Shown piece by piece: positions 19,826 to 53,239 of a stretch of DNA of 64,000 nucleotides (within the stretch, counting starts at the first letter, position 1; the number at the start of each line of letters is the position of its first letter). Source of the stretch: Proteobacteria bacterium CG1_02_64_396 (lineage in GTDB: Bacteria > Pseudomonadota > MNWR01 > CG1-02-64-396); assembly GCA_001872725.1 (NCBI GenBank), contig MNWR01000007.1, positions 5,673 to 69,672 of the forward strand, read 5' to 3'. The position numbers and the translations under genes were made by a program. Below the pieces are notes generated by a model. The model ran no database searches and had not been told where the DNA came from. It saw only the letters and a list, made by a program, of their open reading frames with translations.

Positions 19826-19887
19826 TCCCGGTTTTTCACCGCCATGAGGCACTGTCCCCCAGGAGGATTTTGGACCATGCGAGGTAA

Positions 19888-22308
<2,421 letters not shown>

Positions 22309-23896: not shown

Positions 23897-26800
23897 GTGT
23901 GCATGTCCGACCACCCCGCCGCCGATCTTGAAGCGCTGCTCACCGCCGCCCTGCCGGTGGGCCATCCGGTGTTGGGTGCGATCAGTGCACAAGGACTGCT
24001 CAACTTCATCGCCCCCCCCTTCCCCGAAGACGACCCCTACCCGGTCCGCATCCACCTGGTTCCCCACGGCGAGGGGGCCAGCTACCTGCTGCAAGTTCAC
24101 ACCCCCGACCGCCCCTTTTTGATGGATGTCATCACCGGATTCCTGGCCCGTCAGCACCTCGGCATCAGCGGTATGGTCCACCGGGTGGTCAAGGTGGTGC
24201 GGGGGGAGGAGGGGGTGGCAGTCGAGCCGGGTCCCCAGGTCGAGGGGGGGCGGGGGGAGTTCGTTCTGGCTGCGGTGCTGCATCAAGAACAGCAAGAGGT
24301 GTTGGAGATCGAGGTAACGATCTGCGACCTAAGCGCCACCCTCAAGGCGGTGGCGGCTGCGGTTGACGACCACGGCGCCATGGAGCATCTGCTGCTGCAT
24401 CTGAGCCGCAGCTGGGGTCGCAAGGAGGTGCGTTGGTCCCGTTTTGCCCGCTGGTTGGTCGACGGCAACTACGTCTTTATGGGGGCACGTCGCTACCGTT
24501 GGAACGGACGGCAATGGGTGCCGGGCAAGGGTAAGGAGGATGCCCTGGGGGGATTTACCCCGGCCCTGCCCGAGGGGACGTTGGAGCGGGTGTACCCAGG
24601 GGTGCTGGCGCTGCTCACCGAGTATCTGGCCAAGTGGTGGCCCGTGCGCACAGCCCCGATGCTCCTCGATTTTACCAGGGCAGCCTCTGCGGCCAACTAC
24701 ATCGACGGCTGGATCGATCCGATTTTGCTGGCCGATCCCGACGGCCAATCCTGTTGGCTGCTGCTCGGGCGACTGGCCCGCGCTGCCACCGTCACCCGTC
24801 CCTCTGGGATTCCCCTGCTGGCCGAGCGGATGAACCGGGTGCTGCAAAACGTCGGCGAAAGGGGTGAGACCTACCGGGGCCGCACTTTGCGGGCGCTCTT
24901 CAACCATATGCCGCTGCGCGAGCTGCTCTATTCCAGCGCCGAGGACATACAGCCTCTTCTGGAGGCGGCCATCGCTCTGACCGGCGATGTCGATTTGCGC
25001 CTGCATCTGCGCCGAGGGGGTTGCTGCGACTACGTGGCGTTAACCCTGTTCATCCCCAGGGGGCGCTACTCGGCGGCGTTGGAGCGGCGGCTGCAAAGCC
25101 GGGTGGAGCACGCCTTTGGGCTGAAGGTCGTCCGCACCCAATCGGCCCTGGCCGACACATTCGCCGCATTAACTTGCTTCATGCCCGGTCCCATCGACAC
25201 GGCGCTGCGCGAGGTCGATTTGGAGCGGCTGCGTCTGAGCATGATCGAGGCGGTGAAAACCTGGGGGGACCGTTTCAAAGAGGCGATCTTTGAGCGCTTC
25301 CCTCGGCGCCAGGCGCTGCCGCTGTTGATGCGCTACCTCAACGCTTTTCCCGAGTCGTTTCAGGCCCGTGTCCCCCCCGGTCAGGCAGTCGAAGGGCTGG
25401 CGGGAATCGAGGATTTTCTCATCGACGGCTTCCCCCAGGTGTTGCTGGGGCAGGGGGCCGGTACCGTCTGGGCCCTGAGCGCCATCCTCCCCGAGCGCCG
25501 TCCCCTGGGAGAGGTGATCGCCGCCATCGGTCGGGTCGGATTGACGGTTCAAGAGGAGATCTTCACCAGGCTCGAAATCGAAGGGCGCACCGTCTGTGTG
25601 TGGCGTTTCGAGTTGGTCGACGATCCCGCCCTTGCCTCCCTGGAGGCCAACGGTGCCACGGTCGCCTCGGTGCTGACCGAGGTGTTGGCAGGACGGATGA
25701 TGGACGATCCCCTCAACGCCTTGGCGCTGAATGGTGGATTGACCCCCCGCTGTCTGGTGCGGCTGCGCGGGTTGCTGCGGTTGGTTGCCCAGCTCAACCC
25801 CGCCATTGGGCCCCTCTTTTCCACCGCGATCCTCACCGGCGATCCCGCCCTGGCCCGAGCAGTCCTTGATGGTCTGGCGGCGAGATTCGATCCAGCCCAC
25901 CTCGACGAGCAGGGTTGGGAGGAGGCCAAATCCCGATTTAACGAGGCGCTTGGTCGCATTCGCCTGCTGCGCGAGGACCGGGCGATGCGGGCGCTGTGGC
26001 AGGTGTTGGAGTTGGTGGTGCGCACCGACGCCTTTCATCCCGAGGCGGGGGAGGGGGTCGCCTTCAAATGCTTGGGGGGCGATCTGCCAACCCCTTTCAG
26101 CCCCCATCCCTGGAAGCTGGTCTTCGTCCACGACCAGCGTATGGACGCCGTCCATCTGCGCGGCGGTCCGGTGGCTCGGGGGGGGCTACGCTGGAGCGAC
26201 CGGGGTGATTTCTACGTCGAGGTGCTGGGGCTGATGGCGACCCAGATGGTCAAGAACGCCATCATTGTGCCGGTCGGGGCCAAGGGGGGGTTTTACCTGC
26301 ACGGGGGGCAAAAGGGTGCCAAACAGGTGCGCGAGGCCTACCGTCGCTTCGTTGCTGCCCTGCTGCGCTTGAGCGACAACCGAATTGGGGAGGAGATTGT
26401 TCCCCCCGAGGGGATCGTCCGGCGGGATGATGACGATCCCTACCTGGTGGTGGCGGCCGACAAGGGGACCGCGACCTTCTCGGATCTGGCCAACGAGGTG
26501 GCGCTGGAACGGGGGTTTTGGCTGGGCGACGCCTTCGCCTCGGGGGGCTCCCACGGCTACGACCACAAAGAGATCGGGATTACCGCTCGGGGCGCTTGGG
26601 AATCGGTGCGCCACCTCTTCCGCCTGATCGGGCTCGACCCGCAGGCCGACACCCTGACCGTGGTCGGGATTGGCTCCCCCGCCGGGGATGTCTTCGGTAA
26701 TGGCATGTTGCTGTCGCGCAGCCTCAAGCTGATCGGCGCCTTCACCGGCAAAACCATCTTCATCGACCCCGATCCCGACCCCGAGCGCTCCTGGCTTGAG

Positions 26801-28579
26801 CGCAGGCGGCTCTTCGAAACCTGCCAAAGCTGGGAGGCTTACGACACCCACCAAATCAGCCCCGGCGGCGGCATTTTCGACCGCAGCGCCAAGGCGATCG
26901 ACCTGCCCGAACCCTTCGCCAGATTCCTTGGCATCGAAACCCAGATTTCGGGGGAGGCGCTAATACAGGCGCTGCTCCAGGCGCCGGTCGACCTGCTCTA
27001 CAACGGCGGGATCGGCACCTACATCAAAGCGGCTGCCGAACCCCACGAAGCGGTGATGGACAAGGTGAACGATCCGGTTCGGGTGAACGCCGAGCAGGTG
27101 CGGGCCAGCGTGCTGGTCGAGGGGGGCAATCTAGGGCTGACCATGCGGGCGCGGATCGTCCTGGACCGGCAAGGGGTTTTGCTCAACACCGACGCGCTCG
27201 ACAACTCGGGCGGGGTCAACATGAGCGATCACGAGGTCAATCTAAAGATCTTGGCCATGGATCTGCTCCAGCGCGGGATCTGGCGCAACGTCGAGGAGCG
27301 CAACATCCGGCTGAAAAGCTGGGAGGGGGAGGTGGCGGCCCAGGTTCTGGACGACAACGCCCAAATGGTTCGGGCCATCACCTTGGACGGGCGGCGCAGC
27401 CGCGCCAAGAGGCGGTTCTGGCGCGGCTCTCTGGCCCGCTGGTTCGAACAGGGGGTGCTGGAGGAGGGGGAGGAGGGGATCTCCGAGGGGGCGGTGGGCG
27501 CCTGGCTCGAAGAGGAGCGGGGGATTCCCCGGCCCCTGTTGGCGGTACTGCTGGGCAAGTTGATCCACCACACCGCCGAAATCCTGGGGCGCAATCGGGA
27601 GTGGATCGACCGGGCCAGCCAGCAACCGCTGCTGCTCGATTACTTCCCCAAAGAGGTCGTGCGGCTTTACCCCGAGGCGGTCGAACGCCACCCCCTGGGT
27701 TGGGAGATCACCGCCACCGTGGTGGCCAAACGGATCCATTTTAATGGCGGGGCACGGGCGCTGGAGCGGATCCAGCGCGGGACCGATCTATCGCTGCCCG
27801 ACGCGGTGCGGGCTTGGTTGGTGGCCGAGGCGCTGCTGCCGATTCACGACTACCGAGCCGCTCTGAATGCCCTGGAGGGTCAGGTATCCCCCGACCTGTG
27901 GTTGGAGGCGCGGATGCGGGGCGAGGACGGGGTGGTCCATGTGGCGGCTGCGTTGGCCCGAATCGGCGATCCGCTGCGCATTCAGTTCGATTTGGCCCAC
28001 CACTACCGCCAAGTTGTGAGCGACTACTTCGACACCCTGTTCGAGCGGTTGGTCGCTTTGGGACGCAGCGATCTGCGTGCGGAATGTGACGATCTGGTTG
28101 CGGCGGGGATCCCCGAGGCGGTCGCCTGCCACGCAGTATGTTGGCCCGACATGGAGCGGGTGGGGCGCATCATCCTGATCAAAGAGGATGTCCACCTCCC
28201 CTTCGGCGACGTTGCCGGGCTCTGGCTCCACCTCCATGCCCGTTTTGCCATGGACGACCTCCAACGGTGGGTCGACGCCCTGCAAGCCCGCGATTCGTGG
28301 GGGGAACAGGCCCGTGAGCGCTTGCTCCTGCGCCTGGAGCGACTTCCGGCCCGCTTGCTCGTCAAGGTGCTGGGATTCAAACGCTCCCACGAGAGTATCG
28401 AACACGCTTTGGACGCCTTCTTGGAGGAGCATCGCCCTTTGATCAAACAGTTCGACATCAACCTGACCGCTTTCCGCAGCGATGAGGGGAAGGTGGGCAT
28501 TTTGGGATTGGAGTTGTTGGTGGAGGATTTGGAGGGGTTGGTGGAGCGGAGCCAGGACGTACATGAACTGGGGCGCTAG
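23897..28579 (+). CDS. gdhB: NAD-specific glutamate dehydrogenase, large (~180 kDa) bacterial type
   Basis: 1560 aa. The catalytic core (…GGLRWSDRGDFYVEVLGLMATQMVKNAIIVPVGAKGGFYL…) matches the Bac_GDH family, and the long N- and C-terminal regions are typical of GdhB. Confidence 0.85.
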   Translation: MCMSDHPAADLEALLTAALPVGHPVLGAISAQGLLNFIAPPFPEDDPYPVRIHLVPHGEGASYLLQVHTPDRPFLMDVITGFLARQHLGISGMVHRVVKVVRGEEGVAVEPGPQVEGGRGEFVLAAVLHQEQQEVLEIEVTICDLSATLKAVAAAVDDHGAMEHLLLHLSRSWGRKEVRWSRFARWLVDGNYVFMGARRYRWNGRQWVPGKGKEDALGGFTPALPEGTLERVYPGVLALLTEYLAKWWPVRTAPMLLDFTRAASAANYIDGWIDPILLADPDGQSCWLLLGRLARAATVTRPSGIPLLAERMNRVLQNVGERGETYRGRTLRALFNHMPLRELLYSSAEDIQPLLEAAIALTGDVDLRLHLRRGGCCDYVALTLFIPRGRYSAALERRLQSRVEHAFGLKVVRTQSALADTFAALTCFMPGPIDTALREVDLERLRLSMIEAVKTWGDRFKEAIFERFPRRQALPLLMRYLNAFPESFQARVPPGQAVEGLAGIEDFLIDGFPQVLLGQGAGTVWALSAILPERRPLGEVIAAIGRVGLTVQEEIFTRLEIEGRTVCVWRFELVDDPALASLEANGATVASVLTEVLAGRMMDDPLNALALNGGLTPRCLVRLRGLLRLVAQLNPAIGPLFSTAILTGDPALARAVLDGLAARFDPAHLDEQGWEEAKSRFNEALGRIRLLREDRAMRALWQVLELVVRTDAFHPEAGEGVAFKCLGGDLPTPFSPHPWKLVFVHDQRMDAVHLRGGPVARGGLRWSDRGDFYVEVLGLMATQMVKNAIIVPVGAKGGFYLHGGQKGAKQVREAYRRFVAALLRLSDNRIGEEIVPPEGIVRRDDDDPYLVVAADKGTATFSDLANEVALERGFWLGDAFASGGSHGYDHKEIGITARGAWESVRHLFRLIGLDPQADTLTVVGIGSPAGDVFGNGMLLSRSLKLIGAFTGKTIFIDPDPDPERSWLERRRLFETCQSWEAYDTHQISPGGGIFDRSAKAIDLPEPFARFLGIETQISGEALIQALLQAPVDLLYNGGIGTYIKAAAEPHEAVMDKVNDPVRVNAEQVRASVLVEGGNLGLTMRARIVLDRQGVLLNTDALDNSGGVNMSDHEVNLKILAMDLLQRGIWRNVEERNIRLKSWEGEVAAQVLDDNAQMVRAITLDGRRSRAKRRFWRGSLARWFEQGVLEEGEEGISEGAVGAWLEEERGIPRPLLAVLLGKLIHHTAEILGRNREWIDRASQQPLLLDYFPKEVVRLYPEAVERHPLGWEITATVVAKRIHFNGGARALERIQRGTDLSLPDAVRAWLVAEALLPIHDYRAALNALEGQVSPDLWLEARMRGEDGVVHVAAALARIGDPLRIQFDLAHHYRQVVSDYFDTLFERLVALGRSDLRAECDDLVAAGIPEAVACHAVCWPDMERVGRIILIKEDVHLPFGDVAGLWLHLHARFAMDDLQRWVDALQARDSWGEQARERLLLRLERLPARLLVKVLGFKRSHESIEHALDAFLEEHRPLIKQFDINLTAFRSDEGKVGILGLELLVEDLEGLVERSQDVHELGR

Positions 28580-28877: not shown

Positions 28878-29870
28878 ATGGAACGGACGACGGGAGTGAA
28901 CAGCTGGGCGAGCGCAATGCTGGTGGTGGGATTATTGACGGTGGCGGGATGCAACAGCGGAGGGGGTTCGAGCAGTTCGACGAGTTCAACCATTACCTAC
29001 TCGGGTTCAACTCAACCTGCGCAGATCGATACCACCAATGCCGGGACGGTGGCAGGGACCAGTGCAGGGGGAGCGGGGGCAGCCTCGGCGGTCGCGGCTG
29101 GGGCGGTTGCGACCCCCTCGTCGTCGGGTTCCGCATCCCACATCGGCCATCTTGTCGCCTCGTTGGCAAAGGAGAGGTACCAAACGTTTCCCCGTGGAAC
29201 GGGTCCGGCAGGGGTGACCTACAACCAGACGATCCCCGGCGCTGTGAGCGGTTCGATGACCGTCTCGGGGAGTGTGAACGCCACCACCCAGGTGGGTACG
29301 GTCACCATCGCATTCAATCAATACAACGATGGAGTTGGGAGCATGGACGGCAGCATGACCGTGCAGGTTGTCGGCTACGACATTGCAAGCGACACCATGA
29401 CCGATGCGACCATTCAGTTCGATCATTTGACCGTAAAGGATTCGGTGGACTGGTTTTCGATGAATGGTTCGATTGTCGATCGCGTCAATTTGACCAGCCA
29501 AACCGAGACCATGACCTCCAATCTCGACATGGTCGATCACTACCTCGGCGAATCGGTACGCTTTCAGAACTTCGTCATTGTTGACGTGTACGATTCTTTC
29601 CTCTTTCCGACCACCTACACCGAGACGGAGAACGGTCGGGTTTACATCTCCTCTTTTGGCTACGTCGACCTCACGACCGCTGCGCCCTTGGTCTACACCG
29701 AGGCGACTCAGGCCAATCCCGATTCGGGGGGGCCGATCACCATGACAGGCGCCAACAACAGTGCGGTTCGGCTTACCCCGGTGGACGCCACCAACGTTTT
29801 CGAAGAGGTTGATGCCAATGGCGACGGGGTCTTTGAGTTCAGCCAGACGGTAGCGTGGTCGAATTTGTGA
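28878..29870 (+). CDS. Hypothetical lipoprotein with an S/G/T/A-rich linker and a beta-rich domain
   Basis: Signal peptide plus lipobox (LLTVAG|C). A low-complexity linker (SGGGSSSSTSST… AGTSAGGAGAASAVAAGAVATPSSSGSAS) precedes a ~230-aa domain of unknown function. Confidence 0.6.
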   Translation: MERTTGVNSWASAMLVVGLLTVAGCNSGGGSSSSTSSTITYSGSTQPAQIDTTNAGTVAGTSAGGAGAASAVAAGAVATPSSSGSASHIGHLVASLAKERYQTFPRGTGPAGVTYNQTIPGAVSGSMTVSGSVNATTQVGTVTIAFNQYNDGVGSMDGSMTVQVVGYDIASDTMTDATIQFDHLTVKDSVDWFSMNGSIVDRVNLTSQTETMTSNLDMVDHYLGESVRFQNFVIVDVYDSFLFPTTYTETENGRVYISSFGYVDLTTAAPLVYTEATQANPDSGGPITMTGANNSAVRLTPVDATNVFEEVDANGDGVFEFSQTVAWSNL

Positions 29871-32849: not shown

Positions 32850-33284
32850 ATGCAAGCATCGCGAAAACTCATGGCAACCTACACGGTCTTGCTGGAACTC
32901 GCCTATCGCGGCGGTACCGATCCGCGGCGGTTGCGCGATTTGCTCGAGGCCAACAATCTTTCGCCCCGCTACTTAGAGCCGGTGGTCCAGGCGCTGGTCA
33001 AAGAGGGGATTCTTGTCAGTCATCGCGGTCCCAAGGGGGGCTACGCCCTGGCTAAGAGCCGTCAAGAGGTCAACCTGGGTCAGGTTGCCCGTTTGGTGGC
33101 TGGGGTCGACCGGGAGGTCGACGAACAAGAGAGCGATCTGTTTGGGGTGGTGAAGGGGATCGTGCAAGAGGCCGAGGTCAAGGCGATGGTTTATCTGGAC
33201 GGTTTAACGCTGCAGGACCTGTGCAATCTGGCCTACCGCAGCGGCATCCACAACCCGTGGGCTATGGGTGATACGCCGATTTAG
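32850..33284 (+). CDS. Rrf2-family transcriptional regulator (CymR/IscR-like, no obvious Cys cluster)
   Basis: An N-terminal winged helix (…YTVLLELAYRGG… LSPRYLEPVVQALVKEGILVSHRGPKGGYALAK…). It lies immediately upstream of the sulfur-assimilation cluster. Confidence 0.75.
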   Translation: MQASRKLMATYTVLLELAYRGGTDPRRLRDLLEANNLSPRYLEPVVQALVKEGILVSHRGPKGGYALAKSRQEVNLGQVARLVAGVDREVDEQESDLFGVVKGIVQEAEVKAMVYLDGLTLQDLCNLAYRSGIHNPWAMGDTPI

Positions 33285-33427: not shown

Positions 33428-34657
33428 ATGAGTTCTTTCGTGCGGGGGCTGCGTTGCCGTGAGTGTGGCGCCGAATACCCGGTTAATCCGGTCCATGTCT
33501 GCGAGTTCTGTTTTGGTCCCTTGGAGGTCGTTTACGACTATGAGGGGATGAAAGGGAAGATCAGCCGGGAGTCGATTGAATCCCGGCCTCAGACGATGTG
33601 GCGCTATCGCGAACTGTTGCCGGTCGATCAGGACCCGACCGTGGGTCGTCAGGTCGGCTGGACCCCTCTGGTCCACGCCAAGCGGCTGGGCAAGAAGCTG
33701 GGTCTGAACCACCTCTACATCAAATTCGACGGGATCTGCTATCCGACCCTGTCGTTCAAGGATCGGGTGGTTTCGGTGGCGCTCTCCAAAGCGGTTGAGT
33801 TCGGTTTCGACACCGTCGCCTGCGCCTCAACCGGCAACCTGGCCAACTCGGTGGCGGCCAACGCCGCCGCCTCGGGGCTGAAGTCCTACGTCTTCATCCC
33901 CCACGATCTGGAGCAGGGCAAGGTCCTTGGCTCGGCGATCTACGGCACCAACATGGTTGGAATCAAGGGGAGCTATGACGAGGTGAACCGGTTGTGCTCC
34001 GAGATCGCTGGCAACTACGGCTGGGGTTTCGTGAACATCAACCTGCGCCCCTTCTACGCCGAAGGGAGCAAGTCGCTGGCTTTTGAGTCGTTCGAGCAGT
34101 TGGGGTGGCGGATTCCCGACCACTTCATCGCCCCGATGGCCTCCGGCAGCCTGCTGACCAAGATCTGGAAGGCGCGCGAAGAGATGATTAAGTTGGGGCT
34201 GACTGCCGACACCCCGATGAAGATGCACGGGGCTCAGGCCGACGGTTGCGGCCCCATCGTCCGCGCCGTCGAGGCGGGAACCGAGCTCATCAAACCGGAG
34301 CGGCCAAGCACCATCGCCAAGTCGCTGGCGATTGGCAATCCGGCCGACGGCTTCTACGCCCAGCGCATCATCCGCGAGTCGGGGGGCGATGGTGCCTTGG
34401 TCAACGACGATGAAATCGTCGAGGCGATGCGCCTGGTCGCCGAAACCGAGGGGCTATTCACCGAGACTGCCGGTGGGGTGACCATCGGCACCTTGGTGAA
34501 GCTGGCCGAGCGGGGTCGCTTCAAACCCGACGAGGTGGTGGTTGTGGCGATCACCGGCAACGGCCTCAAGACCCAAGAGGCGATTGCCGACAAGTTGCAA
34601 AAGCCAACCCTGATCGAGCCCAAGTTGGCCGCGTTCGACGCGATCATGCAGGGTTAA
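33428..34657 (+). CDS. Threonine-synthase-family PLP enzyme with an N-terminal zinc-ribbon (ThrC-like)
   Basis: An N-terminal Cx2C…Cx2C (CRECGAEY…CEFCFGP) and the PLP-lysine motif SFKDRV. The glycine-rich region and overall fold belong to the ThrC family. 409 aa. Confidence 0.8.
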   Translation: MSSFVRGLRCRECGAEYPVNPVHVCEFCFGPLEVVYDYEGMKGKISRESIESRPQTMWRYRELLPVDQDPTVGRQVGWTPLVHAKRLGKKLGLNHLYIKFDGICYPTLSFKDRVVSVALSKAVEFGFDTVACASTGNLANSVAANAAASGLKSYVFIPHDLEQGKVLGSAIYGTNMVGIKGSYDEVNRLCSEIAGNYGWGFVNINLRPFYAEGSKSLAFESFEQLGWRIPDHFIAPMASGSLLTKIWKAREEMIKLGLTADTPMKMHGAQADGCGPIVRAVEAGTELIKPERPSTIAKSLAIGNPADGFYAQRIIRESGGDGALVNDDEIVEAMRLVAETEGLFTETAGGVTIGTLVKLAERGRFKPDEVVVVAITGNGLKTQEAIADKLQKPTLIEPKLAAFDAIMQG

Positions 34658-34726: not shown

Positions 34727-35005
34727 ATGGCCGTTTCCGTTCGCATTCCCACCCCCTTGCGCAAGCTGACACAAGACGCCGACACCGTGAGCGGCGAGGG
34801 GGCAACCATCGCCGAGGTTCTGGGCGACCTGAACAATCAGTTCCCCGGCCTGAAAGAGCGTTTGTACGATGAGAGCGGGGCGCTGCGTCGCTTCGTCAAC
34901 GTCTACCTCAACGACGAAGACATCCGTTTCCTCAATGGCGATGCCACCGAGGTCAAGGCGGGTGATGAGCTTTCCATCGTTCCGGCCATCGCGGGCGGGT
35001 GTTGA
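34727..35005 (+). CDS. MoaD/ThiS-like ubiquitin-fold sulfur-carrier protein ending in GG-Cys
   Basis: A 92-aa beta-grasp protein (…VNVYLNDEDIRFLNGDATEVKAGDELSIVPAIAGGC*). ATG 34727 lies 7 nt after AAGGAG. The C-terminus is Gly-Gly followed by one extra Cys. Confidence 0.7.
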   Translation: MAVSVRIPTPLRKLTQDADTVSGEGATIAEVLGDLNNQFPGLKERLYDESGALRRFVNVYLNDEDIRFLNGDATEVKAGDELSIVPAIAGGC

Positions 35006-35039: not shown

Positions 35040-35279
35040 ATGAACAAGAAGATCTACCTAACCTTCCCCCCCGAGCAGATCTCGGAGCCGGTCATCTACA
35101 ACATCGGCCACAAATTCGAGGTGGTGACCAACATCCGCACCGCCTCGATCTCCCCCCAGGTTGGGGTGGTGGGGTTGGAGTTGTCGGGGGAGCCTGACCA
35201 AATCGAGGCGGCCATCGCCTACATCGAGTCCCTGGGCATTTTGGTGGAGCCTATCGAACTCGACGTCATCGAAGGCTGA
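35040..35279 (+). CDS. Standalone NIL-domain (MetN-C-terminal-like, ferredoxin-fold) protein
   Basis: 79 aa with a NIL-like pattern (…EPVIYNI…FEV..NI…[32 protein letters not shown]…). Standalone NIL proteins are known to co-occur with sulfur-carrier-protein pathways. Confidence 0.5.
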
Positions 35280-35307: not shown

Positions 35308-36240
35308 ATGAGCCAGATTTACGATTCGATCGTCGACACTGTGGGCAACACCCCCTTGATCCGCCTCAACCGGGTGACCGAGGGGTTGGGGGCCACCGTG
35401 CTCGCCAAGGTGGAGTTCTTCAATCCCCTGGCGTCGGTGAAGGATCGCATCGCTCTGGCGATGATCGAGGCGGCTGAGCGCTCCGGCGATCTCAAGCCGG
35501 GCGGGCTGCTGGTGGAGCCGACCTCCGGCAATACCGGGATCGCGCTCGCTTTTGTGGCAGCGGCCAAGGGTTACCGGTTGATCCTGACCATGCCCGAATC
35601 GATGAGCCAGGAGCGGCGCAAGATGCTGGCGCTGTTGGGGGCCGAACTGGTGCTCACCCCCGCCGCTTTGGGGATGAAGGGCGCGGTCGAGAAGGCCAAA
35701 GAGATCACGGCCCAGACTCCGGGGGCGGTGATGCCCCAGCAGTTCGAGAACGCCGCCAACCCCGCAGCCCACGAGCGCACCACCGCCGAAGAGCTGTGGC
35801 GCGACACCGACGGCAACATCGACGCCCTGGTGGCGGGGGTGGGAACCGGCGGCACCATCACCGGGGTGAGCCGGGTGATCAAAACCCGCCGCGAGGGTTT
35901 TCAGGCCATTGCGGTGGAGCCCGCCGATTCGCCGGTGCTCGAAGGGGGTGCTCCGGGGCCGCACAAGATTCAGGGGATCGGCGCCGGATTCGTGCCGGGT
36001 GTGTTGCAGCGCGATCTGATCGACGAGGTCTTGCCGATCACCAACGACGAGGCCTTCGCCATGGCGCGAAGGATGGCGCGTGAGGAGGGTATTCCGTGCG
36101 GAATCTCCAGCGGAGCGGCGGTCGCCGCAGCGCTGAAGGTGGCCGCCCGGGACTCCATGGCGGGCAAAACCATCGTGGTGATTATTCCCAGCTTTGCCGA
36201 ACGGTATCTTTCCACCGACCTCTTCGCAGGCTTGGCCTGA
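35308..36240 (+). CDS. cysK: Cysteine synthase / O-acetylserine sulfhydrylase family (CysK/CysM-like)
   Basis: The PLP-lysine motif (…[22 protein letters not shown]…) and GTGGT (…[13 protein letters not shown]…). The true start is ATG 35308; the ORF-track 35161 is an upstream extension. Confidence 0.88.
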
Positions 36241-36273: not shown

Positions 36274-37083
36274 ATGAACTTCACCGAAGAGCAAATCGAG
36301 CGCTACTCGCGCCACATCATCCTTCCCGAGATCGGCGGCCACGGTCAGGCCAAGCTGCTGGGGGCCAAGGTTTTCATGATCGGCGCCGGCGGCCTGGGCT
36401 CCCCGGTCGGGCTCTATCTGGCGGCTGCCGGGGTTGGCACCCTGGGAATTGCCGATGCCGACCACGTCGACCTGTCGAACCTGCAACGGCAAATTGCCCA
36501 CCGCACCGACACCGTCGGGGTCGATAAGGTCGAGTCGATCAAGCGGACCATCAACGCCATCAATCCCGATGTGAACGTGGTGACCTACCCCGAACGCATC
36601 ACCGCCGACAACATCCTGTCGATCATCCGCGACTACGACATCGTGGTGGACGGCTGTGACAACTTCCCGACCCGGTTTTTGGTCAACGACGCCTGCTTCT
36701 TCGAAAAGAAGACCCTGGTCTCGGGGGCGATCTTCCGTTGGGATGGTCAGGTGACCACCTTCCGTCCTCACCAGGACGAAAACGGCCCCTGTTACCGCTG
36801 TCTCTACCCTGAGCCCCCCCCTCCTGGGCTGGTCCCCTCGTGTTCGGAGGCTGGGATTTTGGGCGCCATCGCCGGGATCATCGGCACCATCCAGGCGGCC
36901 GAGGTGGTCAAAGAGATTCTTGGGGTTGGCCGCTCGCTGTCGGGCAGCTTGATGATTTACGACGCCTTGGATGCCCACTGGCGCAAGGTGAAGGTCCGCA
37001 AGGATCCCCATTGCCCCCTGTGTGGTCCCAACCCCACGGTGCGTGAGCTCATCACCTACGACCAGGCCTGTACCATCGGTTAA
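36274..37083 (+). CDS. MoeB/ThiF-family E1-like adenylyltransferase
   Basis: The ThiF nucleotide-binding motif (…KVFMIGAGGLGSPVGLYLAAAGVG…) and C-terminal CxxC pairs (CYRC… CPLC). Confidence 0.85.
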   Translation: MNFTEEQIERYSRHIILPEIGGHGQAKLLGAKVFMIGAGGLGSPVGLYLAAAGVGTLGIADADHVDLSNLQRQIAHRTDTVGVDKVESIKRTINAINPDVNVVTYPERITADNILSIIRDYDIVVDGCDNFPTRFLVNDACFFEKKTLVSGAIFRWDGQVTTFRPHQDENGPCYRCLYPEPPPPGLVPSCSEAGILGAIAGIIGTIQAAEVVKEILGVGRSLSGSLMIYDALDAHWRKVKVRKDPHCPLCGPNPTVRELITYDQACTIG

Positions 37084-37171: not shown

Positions 37172-37975
37172 ATGATCTCTTCAAATAAGCTACACAACGA
37201 CTTCGAGCAGTTCGTCGCCCACCTCAACGCTCAGGAGGGGGAGATCGTCTTCGCCTCCTCCCTGGGGGCCGAGGATGTGGTCATCCACCACCTGCTGGCT
37301 CAGGTGAAACGGCCGGTGCGCATCATCACCCTAGATACCGGGCGGGTCTTCCCCGAGGTCTATTCCCTGATCCCCAAGCTCGAAGAGAAGTACAACCAGA
37401 AGATCGAGATCGTCTTCCCCGAGCGCAGCGATGTGGACGAATTTGTCGGCAAGTACGGCATCAACGGCTTCTACCATTCGGTCGAGGCCCGCAAGGGGTG
37501 CTGCCAGGCTCGCAAAATCAAGCCGCTGCGCCGCGCCCTGGCCGGAGCCGGGGCTTGGATCACCGGGGTGCGTCGGGAGCAGAACGACCACCGCAGCACC
37601 ATCGAGATGAAAGAGGACGACACCGTCTTCGGGCTGACCAAGTTCAACCCGCTCATCAATTGGAGCCAGGACGACGTTTGGGACTTCATTCGCGCTCAAG
37701 GCATCCCCTACAACCCGATGCACGACCGCGGTTTCCCCTCCATCGGCTGCCAGCCCTGCACCCGGGCGGTGGGGGAGGACGAGGATCCCCGCGCCGGGCG
37801 TTGGTGGTGGGAGTGCCGCAATTCGGGCAAGGCCGAGTGCGGTCTGCATTGGAACCCCGAGACCGGCAAGGCGGAGGCGACCTGCAAGGATCGCCCCCAT
37901 GCCGCCGCAGCTAAGAAGGAGGAAAAACCCTCCTTGACCAAGCTGCAACCGGTCCATTTCGGCGCCCATTGGTAA
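37172..37975 (+). CDS. cysH: Adenylylsulfate/phosphoadenylylsulfate reductase, Fe-S type (CysH)
   Basis: A PAPS-reductase fold (…ITLDTGRVFPE…) with a CC pair and a C-terminal CxxC (CCQARKIKP… SIGCQPCT…), which is typical of APS reductases. Confidence 0.85.
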   Translation: MISSNKLHNDFEQFVAHLNAQEGEIVFASSLGAEDVVIHHLLAQVKRPVRIITLDTGRVFPEVYSLIPKLEEKYNQKIEIVFPERSDVDEFVGKYGINGFYHSVEARKGCCQARKIKPLRRALAGAGAWITGVRREQNDHRSTIEMKEDDTVFGLTKFNPLINWSQDDVWDFIRAQGIPYNPMHDRGFPSIGCQPCTRAVGEDEDPRAGRWWWECRNSGKAECGLHWNPETGKAEATCKDRPHAAAAKKEEKPSLTKLQPVHFGAHW

Positions 37976-38045
37976 ACACGGTCGGGGTTTGTGTCTGACA
38001 TGCCCGATGCAGGCCCCCACCGCTTTCCCTCTCCAGGAGGTTGAA

Positions 38046-40289
38046 ATGACAACACCCGTCTGGGTCGATCGCGACGAGATCGACCGACTTGAACATACCC
38101 GCGTTGCTTCTCTGAACGGCAACGTCAGCGACGCGGTTTGGAACACCGAACGTCTGAAGCAGGGGATCTACGGTCAGCGTCAACCCGACGTGCACATGGT
38201 TCGCGCCAAACTGCCGGGGGGATCGATCTCCCCTCGGCAGCTGCGCGGTCTGGCCGATATCGTCGAGGCCGAGGCGATTGATGAGCCGCTGCTCCACGTC
38301 ACCACCCGGCAGGATCTGCAATTCCACTACATCCGCCCCGAACGGCTCGCCCCGGTGCTGCACAAAATGGGCGACTTGGGGCTGATTTCGCGCGAGGCCT
38401 GCGGCCACACGGTGCGCAATGTGACCACCTGCGCCCTGGCGGGGCGTTGCCCCCGTACTCGGGTCGACGGCCACGAGGTGGTCAGCGCCGTCATCCTGCA
38501 TTTTTTGCGGCACCCCCTGGGGCAGAACCTGCCGCGCAAATTCAAGATCGCGGTGGCGGGGTGTGAGTCGGACTGCGCCCTGGCCCCGATCAACGATGTT
38601 GGCCTGACCCCCACCGAGGATGGCTTCTTCCTGGCCGCTGCGGGTGGTTTGGGGCAGGCCCCCAAACCGGCGATCCCGCTGGGAAGCCTGCGCGACGAGG
38701 AGGTCTACCCCGCCATCGAGGCGCTGCTGCGCATTCACCATCGCCACTCCGACCGGGAGCGCCGAGCCCGCGCCCGGCTCAAATTTGTGGTCGAGTCGAT
38801 GGGGAGTGAGGCCTTCCAGGAGCTTTACTGGGAGGAGCGGGAGAACGTCGCCCCCTTCCATAGCGCCCAAGGGGGCGAAAGCTGGGCGCGTCGTACCCCC
38901 GATTTAACTGCGCCGGTCCCAGGTGTCAGCGGTTGGACCAAGCAGATCGACGGCAAGTGGGCTCGCGGCGTGGCGCTGCACAAGGGCGATCTCACACCCG
39001 CCCAGGCGCGGCAACTGGCCGACTTGGTCAGCGGTTTGGGGCTCGACGAGATTGTCCTGACCCAGGCTCAGAATCTGGTGATTGTCGATGTACCCGAAGC
39101 GCACAAAGGGGTGATCGACGAGGGGGTATTCGGCATTGAGGCTTTGATCCCCGCCGACATCGGGGTTTGCCCCGGTGCGGCGACCTGCCGTTTGGGCATC
39201 ACCCGCTCCCGCGATCTGGCCGATTCCGTCGCCGATCTGCCCTTGGGCGATCTCAAGGTGCGGATCTCCGGTTGTGCCAACGGCTGCGGCCACCACGCCA
39301 TCGCCGACTTCGGTCTGCATGGCTTGGCCCGCAAGCGCGACGGCCATTCGATTCCTGCCTACCAGATTCACGTGGGCGGTTCGGCCAGCGGCACCATGGT
39401 TCCGGGTCGCTCCTTGCCCCTGGTGGCGGCGGTTCATGCCCGCGAGGCGCTCAGCCGGTTGGTGGCCGCGTACAACATTGAGCGGCGCGAGGGGGAGTCG
39501 GTGCGGGGTTGGGCCGAACGGATTGGCCCCGAAACCCTTGAAGGTTTGGTGGCCGAGTTCGCCCCCGGCGAGGGGGAGCTCGAAGGGTTGCTCTTCGACT
39601 GGGGCTCCTTCGACCGCTTCTCGACCAAAGAGGTGGGCAAGGGGGAGTGCGCCGCCGCCCTGGTTTCGATGATCGGCGCCCACATGGGCGAGGCGATCTA
39701 CGAGTTGGGCCATGCCCAAACCCTGGCCGCCAAGGGGAGCGTCGCCGCCATCGAATTCGCCCATCGCGGCGTGGTGGCGGCGGTCCGCGCCCTGCTCACC
39801 TTGCGCGGTGAGGAGGAGGGCTCGTGGCAGTTCGGCGAGGAGGAGGCGCTGGCCGCCTTCGAGCGGGGACTGCAAAACACCGAGATGGTGCGCATCCACT
39901 TCACCCAGCTTTATGCCGCGCTGCGCCGCGCCCATCGGGGCGAGGTCGAACCCTTCGTGGCGATTGCCGCCAAGGTGATCGAGACGGTGCGCCGTGCGGT
40001 CGAAAGTCGCGACGGCAGCGACAATCTGCAACCCCCACCGCCCCCCAAGGTGGAGGCGGTCGCCCCCGAGACGGTGCTCGATCTCAAGGGGGTCGGCTGT
40101 CCGATCAACTTCGTTAAAACCAAGCTGCGGCTGGAGATGATGCCGGCCGCCAGCAAACTCACCGTCCTGCTCGACGACGGCCCCCCCATCGAAAACGTCC
40201 CCCTGAGTTTGGAGGGGGAGGGGCACGCCATCGAGGTCAAAGAGCCGTTTGAGGATCGTTGGAAAATCGTGGTGCGTAAGAAGGGGTAA
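38046..40289 (+). CDS. sir: Ferredoxin-dependent sulfite reductase (NirA/Sir hemoprotein family) fused to a C-terminal TusA-like sulfurtransferase domain
   Basis: The siroheme/4Fe-4S cysteine motif (…RISGCANGCGHHAIAD…) and duplicated NIR_SIR ferredoxin-like halves. The last ~75 aa (…LDLKGVGCPINFVKTKLRLEMM…LLDDGPPIENVP…GHAIEV…) match TusA/SirA. ATG 38046 is preceded by AGGAGG. Confidence 0.82.
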   Translation: MTTPVWVDRDEIDRLEHTRVASLNGNVSDAVWNTERLKQGIYGQRQPDVHMVRAKLPGGSISPRQLRGLADIVEAEAIDEPLLHVTTRQDLQFHYIRPERLAPVLHKMGDLGLISREACGHTVRNVTTCALAGRCPRTRVDGHEVVSAVILHFLRHPLGQNLPRKFKIAVAGCESDCALAPINDVGLTPTEDGFFLAAAGGLGQAPKPAIPLGSLRDEEVYPAIEALLRIHHRHSDRERRARARLKFVVESMGSEAFQELYWEERENVAPFHSAQGGESWARRTPDLTAPVPGVSGWTKQIDGKWARGVALHKGDLTPAQARQLADLVSGLGLDEIVLTQAQNLVIVDVPEAHKGVIDEGVFGIEALIPADIGVCPGAATCRLGITRSRDLADSVADLPLGDLKVRISGCANGCGHHAIADFGLHGLARKRDGHSIPAYQIHVGGSASGTMVPGRSLPLVAAVHAREALSRLVAAYNIERREGESVRGWAERIGPETLEGLVAEFAPGEGELEGLLFDWGSFDRFSTKEVGKGECAAALVSMIGAHMGEAIYELGHAQTLAAKGSVAAIEFAHRGVVAAVRALLTLRGEEEGSWQFGEEEALAAFERGLQNTEMVRIHFTQLYAALRRAHRGEVEPFVAIAAKVIETVRRAVESRDGSDNLQPPPPPKVEAVAPETVLDLKGVGCPINFVKTKLRLEMMPAASKLTVLLDDGPPIENVPLSLEGEGHAIEVKEPFEDRWKIVVRKKG

Positions 40290-40400: not shown

Positions 40401-41570
40401 ATGCAATTGATTCCCCCCCACGGCGGACGCCTGATCAACCGTTGGGCCGACCTTGAAGATGTGCAGGTCCAGGCGATCCTGGGCCGACCCAATCCACTGA
40501 AGATCGAACTCGACGACGTGCGGCTGTGCGATCTGGAGTGTCTGGCCGACGGCGCCCTCTCCCCCCTCGAAGGGTTTATGGGGGAGAAGGAATACCATCA
40601 GGTGCTCGATGTGATGGAGCTGCCCGAGGGGCTGGTTTGGCCCTTCCCCATCGTTTTGCCGGTGACCCAGGCGGTGGCGAAGCAAACCGAGCCGGGGCAG
40701 AAGGTGCTTTTGACCGGCGCCGGGCAAACCCTGGGTTGGATCGAAGTGAGCGGGTACTTCAAACGCAACCCCACCAAGGAGGCCAACCGGATCTACGGCA
40801 CCCTGGAGGAGGATCACCCCGGCGTGAAGCGGGTGATGTCGGAGCCGGAGTACGCCCTGGCGGGATCGGTGACGGTGGTCCGTCTGCCCGAGCGACCCTT
40901 CCCGGAGCAACGACTCACTCCGGTCCAGACGCGGGCCGAGTTCGTCAAGCGGGGCTGGAAAACGGTGGTCGCTTTTCAGACCCGCAATCCGATCCATCGG
41001 GCCCACGAATACATCACCAAGTGCGCCCTTGAGGTGGTCGACGGGTTGCTCATCCACCCACTGGTGGGGACAACCAAAAGCGACGACATCCCGGCCGATG
41101 TGCGCATGAAGTGCTACGAGCGGTTGATGCGCGATTACTACCCAGCCGACCGCACCATGCTCTCGGTTTTTCCGGCGGCGATGCGTTACGCCGGGCCGCG
41201 TGAGGCGCTCTTCCACGCCATCGTGCGCAAGAACTACGGCTGTACCCACTTGATCGTGGGACGCGACCACGCCGGGGTGGGCGACTACTACCATCCGTTT
41301 GCCGCCCATGCGATTTTTGACCGTTTCGAGCCGGGCGACATCGGTATCATCCCGCTGCGTTTCGACGCCACCTTCTATTGCAAGCAGTGTGCAGCGATGG
41401 CGTCGTACAAAACCTGCCCCCACGATGGGGAGCACCATGTCGCCCTGTCGGGGACCAAGGTGCGCAAGATGCTCGGCGAGGGGGTCCACCCCCCGGCGGA
41501 GTTCTCCCGCCCCGAGGTGGCGGCGATTTTGGTCGAGTCCTACCGGCAACGGTTCGATCCCGGGATTTGA
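40401..41570 (+). CDS. sat: Sulfate adenylyltransferase (ATP sulfurylase)
   Basis: The QTRNPIHRAHE motif and the GRDHAG(V)G motif. 389 aa. Confidence 0.88.
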   Translation: MQLIPPHGGRLINRWADLEDVQVQAILGRPNPLKIELDDVRLCDLECLADGALSPLEGFMGEKEYHQVLDVMELPEGLVWPFPIVLPVTQAVAKQTEPGQKVLLTGAGQTLGWIEVSGYFKRNPTKEANRIYGTLEEDHPGVKRVMSEPEYALAGSVTVVRLPERPFPEQRLTPVQTRAEFVKRGWKTVVAFQTRNPIHRAHEYITKCALEVVDGLLIHPLVGTTKSDDIPADVRMKCYERLMRDYYPADRTMLSVFPAAMRYAGPREALFHAIVRKNYGCTHLIVGRDHAGVGDYYHPFAAHAIFDRFEPGDIGIIPLRFDATFYCKQCAAMASYKTCPHDGEHHVALSGTKVRKMLGEGVHPPAEFSRPEVAAILVESYRQRFDPGI

Positions 41571-41635: not shown

Positions 41636-42910
41636 ATGAGCAAAAATCATGGTTTGTTCATCGCGGCGTTGATCGCCGTCGTCCTCTGGTTCGCCCAGCC
41701 CTGGATCGCTCCGGCCTGGAGCGCAACCTCGTGGCATGCCCTGGTCATCGCCCTGTTCGTCATGGCGTTGTGGGTGGGGCAGTTTTTACCGTTGCCGGTC
41801 ACCGGTCTGCTCGCGGTCACCCTGATCGTGGTGGCCGGGGTTCTCCCCGCCAAGGCCGCCTTTGCCGCGTTTGCCCAGCCGACCCTGTTTTTCATCATCG
41901 GCGCCCTGGCGCTGGCGGTGGGGGTGGAGGAGAGCGGCCTGGGGCGCACCATCGCCTGCAAGGTCTTCCACGCCGCCAAACCGACGGTGGGGGGGGTGCG
42001 GCGCGCCACCCTATGGGGGAGCGCGGCGCTGGCGCTGGTGATTCCCGAACACGCGGTCGCCGCCGTGGTGATCCCCATGGCGACCCAGATCATCCCCAAG
42101 GGGAGCAAACACCCCAGCATCATCCTGGCCGCCGCTCTGGGGGCGGTGATCGGGGGGATCGTCACCTTCCTGGGGGGCGCCCGGAATATTCTGGCGGTGT
42201 CGATCCTTGAGGAATTCCAGGGGACGGGGATCGCCCACGGCACCTGGATCCTCGACGCCCTGCCGGTGGCGGCCTTGATTCTGCTGCTGGCCGATCTGCT
42301 GCTGACCCGTTTGGAACCGGGTTCGACCCCTTTGACCCTTCCCGAACATTGCCCAACGACTGCGCAGGGAAAACGTATGGCTTGGGTCATGGCCGCCGCG
42401 ATTGCCGCCTGGGCTTTTTGGGGCGAAACGGTGGGGCTGGCCCCCATCGCCCTGGCCGCCACGGTGGCGATGGTGGTCTTCAAGGCGGCCAAGTGGGAGG
42501 CGGTTTCTAAGCATCTGCCCTGGGGGGTGGTGCTGATGTTCGGCGGGGCGCTGGCCATGGGGGGGGCGCTGGCCCAAAGCGGGGCGGCGGCCAACATCGC
42601 CGCCTACACCCCCGATTCGGTGGGTCTTGCCGCCGCCATGTCGATGATTTTGACCCAGGGGATCAGCAACGCCGCCGCCGTGGCGACCTTGCTGCCCATC
42701 CTGTTGCCCGGCTCTTCCGATCCCATCGCCACGACCCTGGCCATCGCCCTGGGTGGAGGGCTCGCCTTCGCCCTGCCGATGGGCGCGCCCGCCATTGCCA
42801 TTGCCTGGGCGACCGGGCAGGTGACGATGGGACAACTGGTGCGCATCGGGGTCACCTTGGGGATCGCCTCGTGGTTCATCCTCATGGGGGCAGCCGCTTG
42901 GTGGTGGTGA
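41636..42910 (+). CDS. Anion permease of the ArsB/NhaD/DASS (SLC13-like) superfamily, putative sulfate transporter
   Basis: A 424-aa polytopic protein with a two-repeat topology. Its position right after sat fits sulfate uptake, but this is inference. Confidence 0.65.
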   Translation: MSKNHGLFIAALIAVVLWFAQPWIAPAWSATSWHALVIALFVMALWVGQFLPLPVTGLLAVTLIVVAGVLPAKAAFAAFAQPTLFFIIGALALAVGVEESGLGRTIACKVFHAAKPTVGGVRRATLWGSAALALVIPEHAVAAVVIPMATQIIPKGSKHPSIILAAALGAVIGGIVTFLGGARNILAVSILEEFQGTGIAHGTWILDALPVAALILLLADLLLTRLEPGSTPLTLPEHCPTTAQGKRMAWVMAAAIAAWAFWGETVGLAPIALAATVAMVVFKAAKWEAVSKHLPWGVVLMFGGALAMGGALAQSGAAANIAAYTPDSVGLAAAMSMILTQGISNAAAVATLLPILLPGSSDPIATTLAIALGGGLAFALPMGAPAIAIAWATGQVTMGQLVRIGVTLGIASWFILMGAAAWWW

Positions 42911-46480: not shown

Positions 46481-47044
46481 CTAAAACCGAATTCCCAGAT
46501 CGAACGCAGCGGTCACCACCCGGATCTTTCCCCCCGAATTGGGGAAATAGGTGGTTTCGTAACCCTGGGTGGGACGTGCGCCCAAGGCGAGGTTGAGCAC
46601 CACGGTCGATCCTTGATAACCAAAGCCCAGGATCCCCTCGACCCCGCCGGCATTGTAACTGGCCGTGCCGACCACCCCTGAGATGTGGTCGGAATAGCCC
46701 CCCAGACCGATGTAACCGTTCCACCCCTGGCGCCAATTCGTCCCCAGCAAAAGCGACAACTCCCCCCCAGTCATTTTGACGCTGCTTCCCCCCAATGGGC
46801 TGGCTTTGCTGCCACCGCTCCCCTTGAGCATGTAGTAGCGCAACTGAAAGGCGAGGTTGTCGCTGGCGGGAATCAAAGCCTGAAGCCCAGGGCCGTTCAG
46901 CAGGTCGGTGGTGTTGGCGCTGCTGGTGTCGACCACCTGCATCGCCATACCCGAAACCCCAATCGAGGTGGCGGGAATCTCTCGGGCTTGAGCAGTGGCG
47001 GCGCTGCCGAGGATCAGCAGCAAAGCAATGGCGGAGCGGGACAT
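46481..47044 (-). CDS. Outer-membrane beta-barrel protein (small porin/OmpA-like barrel), paralog 1
   Basis: A signal peptide (…AATAQA), an alternating-hydrophobic Gly/Ser/Thr-rich pattern and a C-terminal aromatic (…LGIRF). 187 aa. Confidence 0.65.
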   Translation of the reverse strand: MSRSAIALLLILGSAATAQAREIPATSIGVSGMAMQVVDTSSANTTDLLNGPGLQALIPASDNLAFQLRYYMLKGSGGSKASPLGGSSVKMTGGELSLLLGTNWRQGWNGYIGLGGYSDHISGVVGTASYNAGGVEGILGFGYQGSTVVLNLALGARPTQGYETTYFPNSGGKIRVVTAAFDLGIRF

Positions 47045-47196: not shown

Positions 47197-47766
47197 TCAG
47201 AAGAAGAAGGACAGATCCAAGGAGGCCGATGAGGCAGCCGTATTGCCGGTCCCGAAGAAGATGTCAGTGTCGTATTTGCTGGCGGACCGAATCGCTACAG
47301 AAAAATCGATGGCGAGGAAGCCGCCGTTATAGCCAAGCCCAAGCACCCCCATGCCGCCGGAGAAGGAGTTCGAGCTGGCACCCGAGGTCGAATTGCCGAA
47401 TTTTTCAGAAAATCCACCCGCCCCAACATACAGATTGCCCCCCTGGGCCCAATTCGTGCCGAAGAGAATGGCGAAATCGGCGCCCGTGAGGGTGATGTTA
47501 TTGCTGCTCAGAATGGTCCCTTTGCCGTCCTGAACCCCTTTTAGGGAATAGAAGTGTGCCCGCAGAGCTATGGTTTCATCGAAGGGGAGGGTGCCCACGA
47601 GGGCGCCGCCCGAGAAGGTGTCGGTCGTCGAAATAATGTCGGTGTTGACGATGGCGACGGCATAACTGCCGATACCGATCGAGGCGCGCGGGCCATCCTC
47701 GGCTTGAGCCGAGAGCGGCGCTGCGAGAGCGAGAAGGACTGCGGCGGTCGTGGCGATTCGTTTCAT
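47197..47766 (-). CDS. Outer-membrane beta-barrel protein, paralog 2 (tandem duplicate of 46481..47044)
   Basis: Same architecture and shared blocks (…FGTNW.QG.N.Y.G.GG…, C-terminal FFF). An RBS GGAGAGAG lies upstream. Confidence 0.65.
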   Translation of the reverse strand: MKRIATTAAVLLALAAPLSAQAEDGPRASIGIGSYAVAIVNTDIISTTDTFSGGALVGTLPFDETIALRAHFYSLKGVQDGKGTILSSNNITLTGADFAILFGTNWAQGGNLYVGAGGFSEKFGNSTSGASSNSFSGGMGVLGLGYNGGFLAIDFSVAIRSASKYDTDIFFGTGNTAASSASLDLSFFF

Positions 47767-53235: not shown

Positions 53236-53239
53236 GATT

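Follow-up and report, generated by a model that had tools for sequence, protein, structure and literature searches.

Streptomyces albulus makes homocysteine from O-phosphohomoserine with MetM, a homolog of threonine synthase that uses the thiocarboxylate of the carrier protein MetO. According to the GapMind 2026 preprint, which cites Hasebe 2024 for this pathway, the sulfur is put on MetO by MoeZ, and maturation of the MetO terminus requires Mec; the preprint also states that MetM is often misannotated as threonine synthase. Here, we analyzed a carrier gene in a 64,000-nt stretch of contig MNWR01000007.1 (hereafter the window; all coordinates are positions within it) from an uncultured groundwater bacterium. 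The encoded protein ends in Gly-Gly-Cys. It is probably the precursor of a CysO/MetO-type sulfur carrier in an operon for sulfate assimilation and homocysteine synthesis, its terminal cysteine being a cap that is cut off by a Mec-type hydrolase encoded elsewhere.

Processing at the carrier terminus has been described in related systems. Mec hydrolyses the CysO-cysteine adduct (PMC3227635). Trimming of QbsE, which ends in Gly-Gly-Cys-Phe, by QbsD is established, and trimming of CxnE, which has 10 residues after Gly-Gly, by CxnF has been proposed; in both carriers, the residues after Gly-Gly must be removed before adenylation can occur (PMC5925218).

The window locus resembles each of these systems in part. 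As in the MetM/MetO system of S. albulus, a gene for a ThrC-like pyridoxal 5′-phosphate (PLP) enzyme, annotated as threonine synthase, lies beside a gene for a small ThiS/MoaD-fold carrier. An E1-type activating enzyme is likewise present, and the carrier precursor, which needs maturation of its terminus in S. albulus, is tailed here. Unlike the S. albulus pair, the pair in the window sits inside a full sulfate-reduction operon and has a conserved extra partner, a NIL-domain protein. The E1 of the window lacks a rhodanese domain, and a TusA domain is found on the sulfite reductase instead. No S-adenosylmethionine riboswitch was found 5′ of the ThrC-like gene, where one would be expected from S. 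albulus metM, and a regulator of the Rrf2 family sits there instead; nor was a Mec gene found in the window. Overall, the cluster is best read as a predicted MetM/MetO-type homocysteine route joined to sulfate reduction, a prediction that derives from gene context rather than from sequence comparison with MetM and MetO.

With the CysO/CysM/Mec+/MoeZ system of Mycobacterium tuberculosis, the locus shares a carrier with 49% full-length identity to CysO, and the encoded Gly-Gly-Cys corresponds to the adduct that is the substrate of Mec+. By contrast, CysO ends in a bare Gly-Gly, the neighbour of the window's carrier is ThrC-like, the cysteine synthase is CysK rather than CysM, and no mec gene is adjacent. 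QbsE and CxnE also have residues encoded after Gly-Gly, and the tail of QbsE likewise starts with Cys, but QbsE/QbsD and CxnE/CxnF belong to secondary-metabolite clusters with the JAMM protease gene alongside, whereas the window's carrier belongs to primary sulfur assimilation and has no linked protease. In Wolinella succinogenes, Krishnamoorthy and Begley reportedly described in 2011 a synthesis of homocysteine via a protein thiocarboxylate by HcyS, HcyD, HcyF and MetY; the Gly-Gly-Ala tail of HcyS is said to be trimmed by a JAMM protease of the same cluster, which also cuts the carrier-homocysteine adduct. HcyS resembles the window's carrier in having one residue after Gly-Gly, but its partner is MetY (an O-acetylhomoserine sulfhydrylase) rather than a ThrC-like enzyme, and its protease is in the cluster. 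Finally, the archaeal SAMP1/UbaA/HvJAMM1 system also has a beta-grasp carrier with a Gly-Gly end and combines it with a JAMM protein, a partner that is predicted for the window's carrier, and the E1 of the window resembles UbaA; here, however, the context is sulfur assimilation, there is no sign of protein conjugation, and the match to SAMP1 is weak.

The carrier gene and its C-terminus

34727..35005 (+), CysO/MetO-type sulfur-carrier precursor, 92 aa, ending in Gly90-Gly91-Cys92 (sequence; Pfam ThiS 4.1e-17; solved relatives 4n6e_B and 3dwg_C)
35000..35005 (+), last sense codon TGT, for the single-residue cap Cys92 that follows Gly-Gly, and stop codon TGA (sequence; the same in four independent assemblies)

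The gene starts with an ATG at 34727, preceded at 7 nt by an AGGAG ribosome-binding site, and its 3′ end reads GCC ATC GCG GGC GGG TGT TGA at 34988-35005. The translation of 92 residues has the C-terminus VPAIAGGC*, as a preliminary description of the window had read it. As encoded, the Gly-Gly at residues 90-91 is not free, Cys92 blocking the C-terminus. The Pfam ThiS profile (PF02597) matched residues 5-91 over profile positions 1-76 of 76. The carrier also passed NCBIfam models of the SAMP1/MoaD type, the SAMP1 match being weak, at 62.8 bits for a cutoff of 60, and much poorer than the match of the same protein to CysO. Its best solved relatives by a wide margin, 4n6e_B (3.7e-22) and M. tuberculosis CysO (3dwg_C; 3.1e-21), both terminate at a bare Gly-Gly. 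Judged by its sequence, the carrier is the product of a real gene, has the ThiS/MoaD fold and is an ortholog of CysO. The earlier assignment of a MoaD/ThiS-fold carrier near a MoeB/ThiF E1 was thereby borne out, the latter matching Pfam ThiF as listed below.

The extra cysteine could in principle reflect a sequencing or assembly artefact at the stop codon, which is a general risk for metagenome-assembled genomes and nothing more. The protein has been deposited in identical form as OIO61331.1 and PJA24002.1, from the genomes of Alphaproteobacteria bacterium CG_4_10_14_0_2_um_filter_63_37 and Proteobacteria bacterium CG1_02_64_396, both from Crystal Geyser groundwater. Moreover, four contigs assembled separately from different samples (ENA ERZ17986945, JGI 3300014060, ENA ERZ909570 and JGI 3300008086) were 99.99-100% identical to the window, and every base of the stop-codon region was the same in all four. 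This makes an assembly error at the stop codon very unlikely. Gly-Gly-Cys ends also turn up again in unrelated lineages. On the strength of the four identical assemblies, an artefact was ruled out, its probability being negligible.

C-terminal tails of related carriers

To place the Gly-Gly-Cys end among its relatives, we compared the C-termini of homologous carriers. Among the 120 closest homologs (65-80% identity to the carrier), 44 end in Gly-Gly and 76 have 1-6 extra residues. These tails are diverse and include L, R, RR, C, Q, K, S, N, M, RG, RN and others. The same tail pattern emerged when 1.8 billion cluster representatives were searched without filters, a search that also turned up many in-frame fusions of the carrier Gly-Gly to NIL domains, to E1 enzymes or to a second carrier. 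Pooling the protein matches with the carriers from 160 genome and metagenome loci yielded 409 unique carriers, 131 of which (32%) end in Gly-Gly and 278 of which (68%) are tailed. The commonest first tail residues are Ala (58 carriers), Arg (53), Ser (31), Cys (25), Leu (20) and Val (14), and the 25 carriers with Cys after Gly-Gly represent at least 15 separate lineages.

The preliminary description had presented the Gly-Gly-Cys end as an unusual state; with over two-thirds of the family tailed, it is not one. Nor is the carrier an outlier among orthologs that uniformly end in Gly-Gly, a situation which that description had named as refuting its observation. Caps are the rule in CysO/MetO-type carriers, with a sequence that is essentially unconstrained, and the Gly-Gly-Cys feature, while accurately reported, is ordinary: it is a known kind of capped sulfur carrier.

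The junction between the carrier and NIL genes bears on the origin of the tails. In compact operons, the tail codons overlap the start of the NIL gene, such that xxT TGA provides a TTG start and xxG TGA provides a GTG start. Some of the diversity among tails therefore simply follows from the way in which adjacent genes abut. At these overlaps, the last tail codon is constrained by the start of the neighbouring gene and not by the carrier protein. The carrier TGA overlaps the NIL start at the junctions in L014, L061, L062, L072, L076, L083 and L086. Stop-codon read-through as the sole origin of tails was rejected: it fits L, R, C, Q, K and S but not A, N, M, V or T. Read-through is retained only as a partial contributor, beside the overlap with the downstream start.

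In several relatives, a NIL domain is fused in frame to the carrier Gly-Gly (L045 at 8068-8682; L059, L125, L139, L142, L146 and L171; P0147, P0148, P0166 and P0201). The repetition of fusions through the Gly-Gly implies internal cleavage at this position. Some carrier fusions could be frameshift errors in metagenome-assembled genomes.

The prevalence of tails also raises the possibility that the cap creates a regulatory pro-form, in which the carrier would be inert until released by a protease. Wasteful adenylation or ubiquitin-like conjugation would thereby be avoided, and the presence of the cap would be selected while its identity would be irrelevant. The recurrence of tails in 68% of the family and in many lineages is consistent with such a role, as are the score of the carrier just over the cutoff of the NCBIfam model for the protein modifier SAMP1 and the resemblance of its E1 to UbaA, which activates SAMPs. 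JAMM-regulated SAMP1 systems are known, according to PMC4443979. Nevertheless, a bare Gly-Gly suffices for a third of the family, among them entire clades that have the same operon; the tails often coincide with overlaps of neighbouring genes, which fits a neutral by-product; and there is no sign of conjugation targets. We consider a regulatory pro-form improbable.

Two groups of carriers, each with a fixed short tail, stand apart by their surroundings. Neither ThrC-like, NIL, CysK, MoeB nor JAMM genes occur within 8 kb of the carriers in the group with the tail Cys-Ala (L104, L107, L108, L112 and L113), and the usual partners are likewise missing within 8 kb in the group with the tail Phe (L149, L155, L156, L162, L164, L165 and L167).

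Linkage of the carrier to JAMM proteases

We searched the window for a protease of the type that matures CysO-like carriers. A regular expression for the JAMM motif (HxH...SxxD), applied to all six frames of the window, gave only chance matches in unrelated open reading frames (ORFs). A profile built from 33 carrier-linked JAMM proteins, run with all filters off against the six-frame translation of the window, had no match (best E 0.63), and Pfam scans of the other genes in the window detected no JAB or Prok-JAB domain. On the 118-kb parent contig, the ∼9 kb next upstream encode ATP-citrate lyase, LpxC and the like, and a JAMM gene is absent there too. The statement in the preliminary description that the cluster has no JAMM gene is therefore correct and holds for the whole window and this upstream flank. 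In related Thermodesulfobacteriota, the carrier has the full set of a CysM-like enzyme, a JAMM protein and MoeB beside it, and in these clusters (e.g. L014) the cysteine synthase and MoeB genes are separated by the JAMM gene. In the window, the end of cysK (36240) and the start of the MoeB gene (36274) are 33 nt apart, with no JAMM gene between them.

Linkage was quantified in the 85 loci with at least 3 kb of flanking sequence on each side, counting JAMM genes within 6 kb of the carrier. The Prok-JAB genes of the relatives were confirmed by Pfam PF14464.

Tailed carriers (51): JAMM within 6 kb, 31; no JAMM within 6 kb, 20
GG-ended carriers (34): JAMM within 6 kb, 5; no JAMM within 6 kb, 29

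Tails and linked Prok-JAB genes are thus associated, with an odds ratio of 9 (Fisher p 4e-5, not corrected for phylogeny), in agreement with the earlier suggestion that residues after Gly-Gly go with JAMM proteases. A local JAMM gene also tracks a neighbouring cysteine-synthase gene, being present in 31 of the 35 loci that have one versus 5 of the 50 that do not, which fits the known role of Mec on the CysO-cysteine adduct (PMC3227635). At the same time, 20 of the 51 tailed carriers have no JAMM gene nearby and an E1 gene is nearby in only 16 of the 85 loci, such that an unlinked protease is common. In the CysO/MetO-type family, the trimming protease and the E1 are usually encoded away from the carrier. 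Close homologs for which no local JAMM gene was found end in GG-Gln (P0037), GG-Asn (P0042), GG-Arg-Arg (P0006) or GG-Cys (P0113 and P0060).

Cys92 might instead be removed by an enzyme that is not a JAMM protease, such as a general carboxypeptidase, in which case a dedicated protease gene would be needless. Tail lengths are consistent with this: where no JAMM gene is linked, tails are short (16 of 20 have at most two residues and 11 a single one), whereas in the presence of a linked JAMM gene their median length is 4 residues and their maximum 9, in addition to whole fused domains, a pattern that is uncorrected for phylogeny. Consistent with it too, no JAMM gene was found in the 73 kb examined here, nor near P0037, P0042 and P0113. 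On the other hand, no candidate peptidase is conserved in the carrier operons, and a carboxypeptidase would have to halt exactly at Gly-Gly. Moreover, the carrier-NIL fusion of L045 (and of L059, which has a shorter flank) needs an internal cut and yet has no local JAMM gene; an unlinked endopeptidase must therefore exist in some genomes. Trimming by a non-JAMM enzyme is accordingly rather unlikely, and we favour a Mec-type protease encoded beyond the window.

The role of the terminal cysteine

Three observations weigh against the reading of Cys92 as an arbitrary cap removed by an unlinked Mec-type protease. First, there is no JAMM gene in the 73 kb around the carrier that comprise the window and the 9 kb upstream. 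Second, at ∼9% of first tail residues, Cys is clearly more frequent there than it generally is in proteins. Third, L087 and L092, the only other known clusters with the gene order ThrC-like, carrier, NIL, CysK and ThiF, also encode carriers that end in Gly-Gly-Cys. These two clusters share ∼67% nucleotide identity with the window, use TGC rather than TGT for the Cys codon, and have other stop codons and unrelated downstream DNA. The shared end of the three clusters hints at selection for Cys in this JAMM-less cluster type, with 2-3 lineages only.

These data would be accommodated if the terminal Cys were functional, as the preliminary description had proposed as one of its options. Cys92 could carry a persulfide derived from TusA, or an N-to-S acyl shift at Gly-Cys could form a thioester that sulfide attacks to yield the thiocarboxylate, without any protease. 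The recurrence of Gly-Gly-Cys in the JAMM-less gene order despite differing codons, the over-representation of Cys directly after Gly-Gly and the fusion of a TusA domain to the operon's sulfite reductase are all consistent with this proposal. However, the cysteine is not conserved among orthologs, the tails of which are hypervariable. The nearest carrier (P0002, 80% identity to that of the window) ends in GG-Ala-Gly. Orthologs that are nearly identical to each other exchange Cys for other residues, as in L027 (Cys) versus L030 (Ser) after Gly-Gly at 96% identity and in L107 (Cys-Ala) versus L111 (Trp-Ala) at 97%. Further close homologs (69-74% identical) are encoded in the same ThrC-like-carrier-NIL core and terminate in Gln, Asn, Leu, Arg or other residues. 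Furthermore, a JAMM gene directly adjoins the genes of the Poribacteria GG-Cys carrier (L027) and of the GG-Cys-Leu carrier (L091), and the E1 gene of the operon implies ordinary adenylation of a free glycine. A functional terminal Cys is therefore very doubtful. We regard as equally remote the narrower proposal that, in the rare JAMM-less cluster type, the terminal Cys has been selected and joins in sulfur loading, so that the carrier is charged without a dedicated protease. Conservation of Gly-Gly-Cys across a clade was also considered and rejected: it holds when loci are grouped by operon type (the window, L087 and L092) and fails among the nearest relatives by carrier sequence, which end in AG, L, RR and GTGR.

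Cys92 itself is best read as having no special role: it is an interchangeable tail, tolerated because the residues after Gly-Gly are cut off. Chemically, the encoded Gly-Gly-Cys does not differ from the amide of CysO-cysteine, the adduct on which Mec naturally acts, and a Mec-type enzyme would therefore accept it readily. Mimicry of the adduct may be the reason why tails begin with Cys and other small residues more often than expected. Of the three options in the preliminary description, a protease encoded elsewhere fits best, and delivery as a Cys adduct survives only in this chemical identity of Gly-Gly-Cys with CysO-cysteine.

The sulfur-assimilation operon and the predicted pathway

32850..33284 (+), Rrf2-family (CymR/IscR-like) regulator, probable regulator of the cluster (Pfam Rrf2 2.5e-19; weak NCBIfam CymR match)
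33428..34657 (+), ThrC-like PLP enzyme with an N-terminal zinc ribbon, proposed MetM-like homocysteine synthase (Pfam PALP 1.6e-66; NinF-type zinc ribbon at residues 9-33)
35040..35279 (+), stand-alone NIL-domain protein, 79 aa, without cysteine (Pfam NIL 2.2e-14; conserved carrier partner)
35308..36240 (+), CysK, canonical O-acetylserine sulfhydrylase using free sulfide (NCBIfam cysK TIGR01139, 457 bits, cutoff 351)
36274..37083 (+), MoeB/ThiF E1-like adenylyltransferase, 269 aa (Pfam ThiF 1.2e-80)
37172..37975 (+), adenosine 5′-phosphosulfate/3′-phosphoadenosine 5′-phosphosulfate (APS/PAPS) reductase, CysH (Pfam PAPS_reduct 2e-46; NCBIfam APS_reductase 249 bits)
37989..40289 (+), assimilatory sulfite reductase with a C-terminal TusA fusion (Pfam NIR_SIR, NIR_SIR_ferr, and TusA at residues 696-764, 1.7e-14)
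40401..41570 (+), ATP sulfurylase, Sat (Pfam ATP-sulfurylase 4.3e-99, PUA_2)
41636..42910 (+), DASS-family anion symporter, probable sulfate importer (Pfam Na_sulph_symp, CitMHS; NCBIfam dass)

The carrier cluster lies on one strand throughout, with tightly spaced genes, and is operon-like. It is a sulfate-assimilation cluster, and the route that it matches best is the one described from Streptomyces in 2024, in which homocysteine is made by way of a thiocarboxylate. Between the end of the ThrC-like gene and the carrier start lie 69 nt. The MoeB/ThiF gene lies 1.3 kb downstream of the carrier in the same operon, and its product aligns to residues 120-384 of the rhodanese-MoeB model and so has no rhodanese part. 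This enzyme should activate the C-terminal glycine of the carrier. For the sulfite reductase-TusA fusion, gene callers place the start at ∼38046 and call a protein of 747 aa.

On these grounds, the following pathway is proposed. The carrier is made as a precursor of 92 residues in which, as its sequence indicates, Cys92 blocks the Gly-Gly. A hydrolase specific for Gly-Gly would cut off Cys92; it is most likely a Mec-type JAMM/Prok-JAB metalloprotease from beyond the 64-kb window. By homology, the adjacent MoeB/ThiF would then adenylate Gly91. Reduced sulfur would turn the acyl-adenylate into a thiocarboxylate, the source being the sulfite reductase of the operon, probably by way of its fused TusA. 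By analogy to MetM and MetO of S. albulus, the ThrC-like enzyme would use the thiocarboxylate and O-phosphohomoserine to produce homocysteine. CysK would make cysteine separately from free sulfide.

The cysteine synthase of the cluster is assigned to the sulfide-using CysK type and not to the carrier-dependent CysM type that uses O-phosphoserine. Its best solved match is CysK1 of M. tuberculosis (2q3b, 401 bits), and the carrier-dependent CysM of M. tuberculosis was not among its top 60 solved matches.

The fused TusA suggests that sulfur from sulfite reduction is passed to the adenylated carrier. The TusA domain contains a GVGCP motif, and the MoeB of the same operon has no rhodanese domain. 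In Thermodesulfobacteriota relatives, genes for a small ferredoxin protein resembling sulfite reductase and for a free-standing TusA lie directly upstream of the carrier gene (L014 at 8523-9971).

The ThrC-like protein aligns with solved threonine synthases only from residue ∼54 on. Its N-terminus is a zinc ribbon of ∼50 residues (CxxC...CxxC; the Pfam NinF match) that is missing from the solved threonine synthases. The same zinc ribbon occurs in the carrier-linked ThrC-like homologs of L085-L087. In many related loci, an Rrf2 gene lies 5′ of the ThrC-like gene, as in the window.

Conserved partners and annotation of the locus

Of 72 genome loci, 43 encode a ThrC-like homolog immediately 5′ of the carrier, and in 39 of 71 a NIL gene lies immediately 3′ of it. 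Overall, the two genes flank the carrier in most of the ∼160 related loci, many of which are metagenomic. Besides the NIL fusions, carriers of the family are fused to an E1 (P0179, P0193, P0202, P0208 and P0253) or to ATP sulfurylase (L006 at 9986-11425, with a JAMM gene at 9526-9990), and tandem carriers occur in P0125 and P0126.

The main value of these results lies in annotation. The carrier has been deposited as ‘molybdopterin synthase sulfur carrier subunit’ and its neighbours as ‘threonine synthase’ (the ThrC-like protein) and ‘FeS-binding protein’ (the NIL protein). The last of these names, given by NCBI, is wrong, since the NIL protein contains no cysteine. The context points instead to the recently described thiocarboxylate route to homocysteine, which in this uncultured groundwater bacterium, labelled Alphaproteobacteria, would be tied directly to sulfate reduction. 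The analysis also flags two conserved, unstudied partners: the NIL-domain protein, a frequent fusion partner of the carrier, and TusA.

Other genes in the window

The rest of the window encodes housekeeping functions, including the nuo operon, dnaA-dnaN-gyrB, murJ, glutamate dehydrogenase, coaBC, dut, gatCAB, hisIE and rnpA-yidC-mnmE, among others. The glutamate dehydrogenase is NAD-specific, of the Bac_GDH type, and very large, with 1560 aa (23897-28579, +). Four coding-like ORFs matched no Pfam family (28878-29870, +; 46481-47044, −; 47197-47766, −; and 58153-58518, −). As both dnaA-dnaN-gyrB (17257-22308) and rnpA-yidC-mnmE (53123-57632) are present, the window probably covers the region of the chromosomal replication origin. 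Finally, the nuo operon is preceded by a gene for a citrate-synthase-like protein (59-781) and, just upstream of the window, by genes for the subunits of ATP-citrate lyase (L088/L089 at 6720-9861). This arrangement hints at a reductive tricarboxylic acid cycle in the groundwater bacterium.

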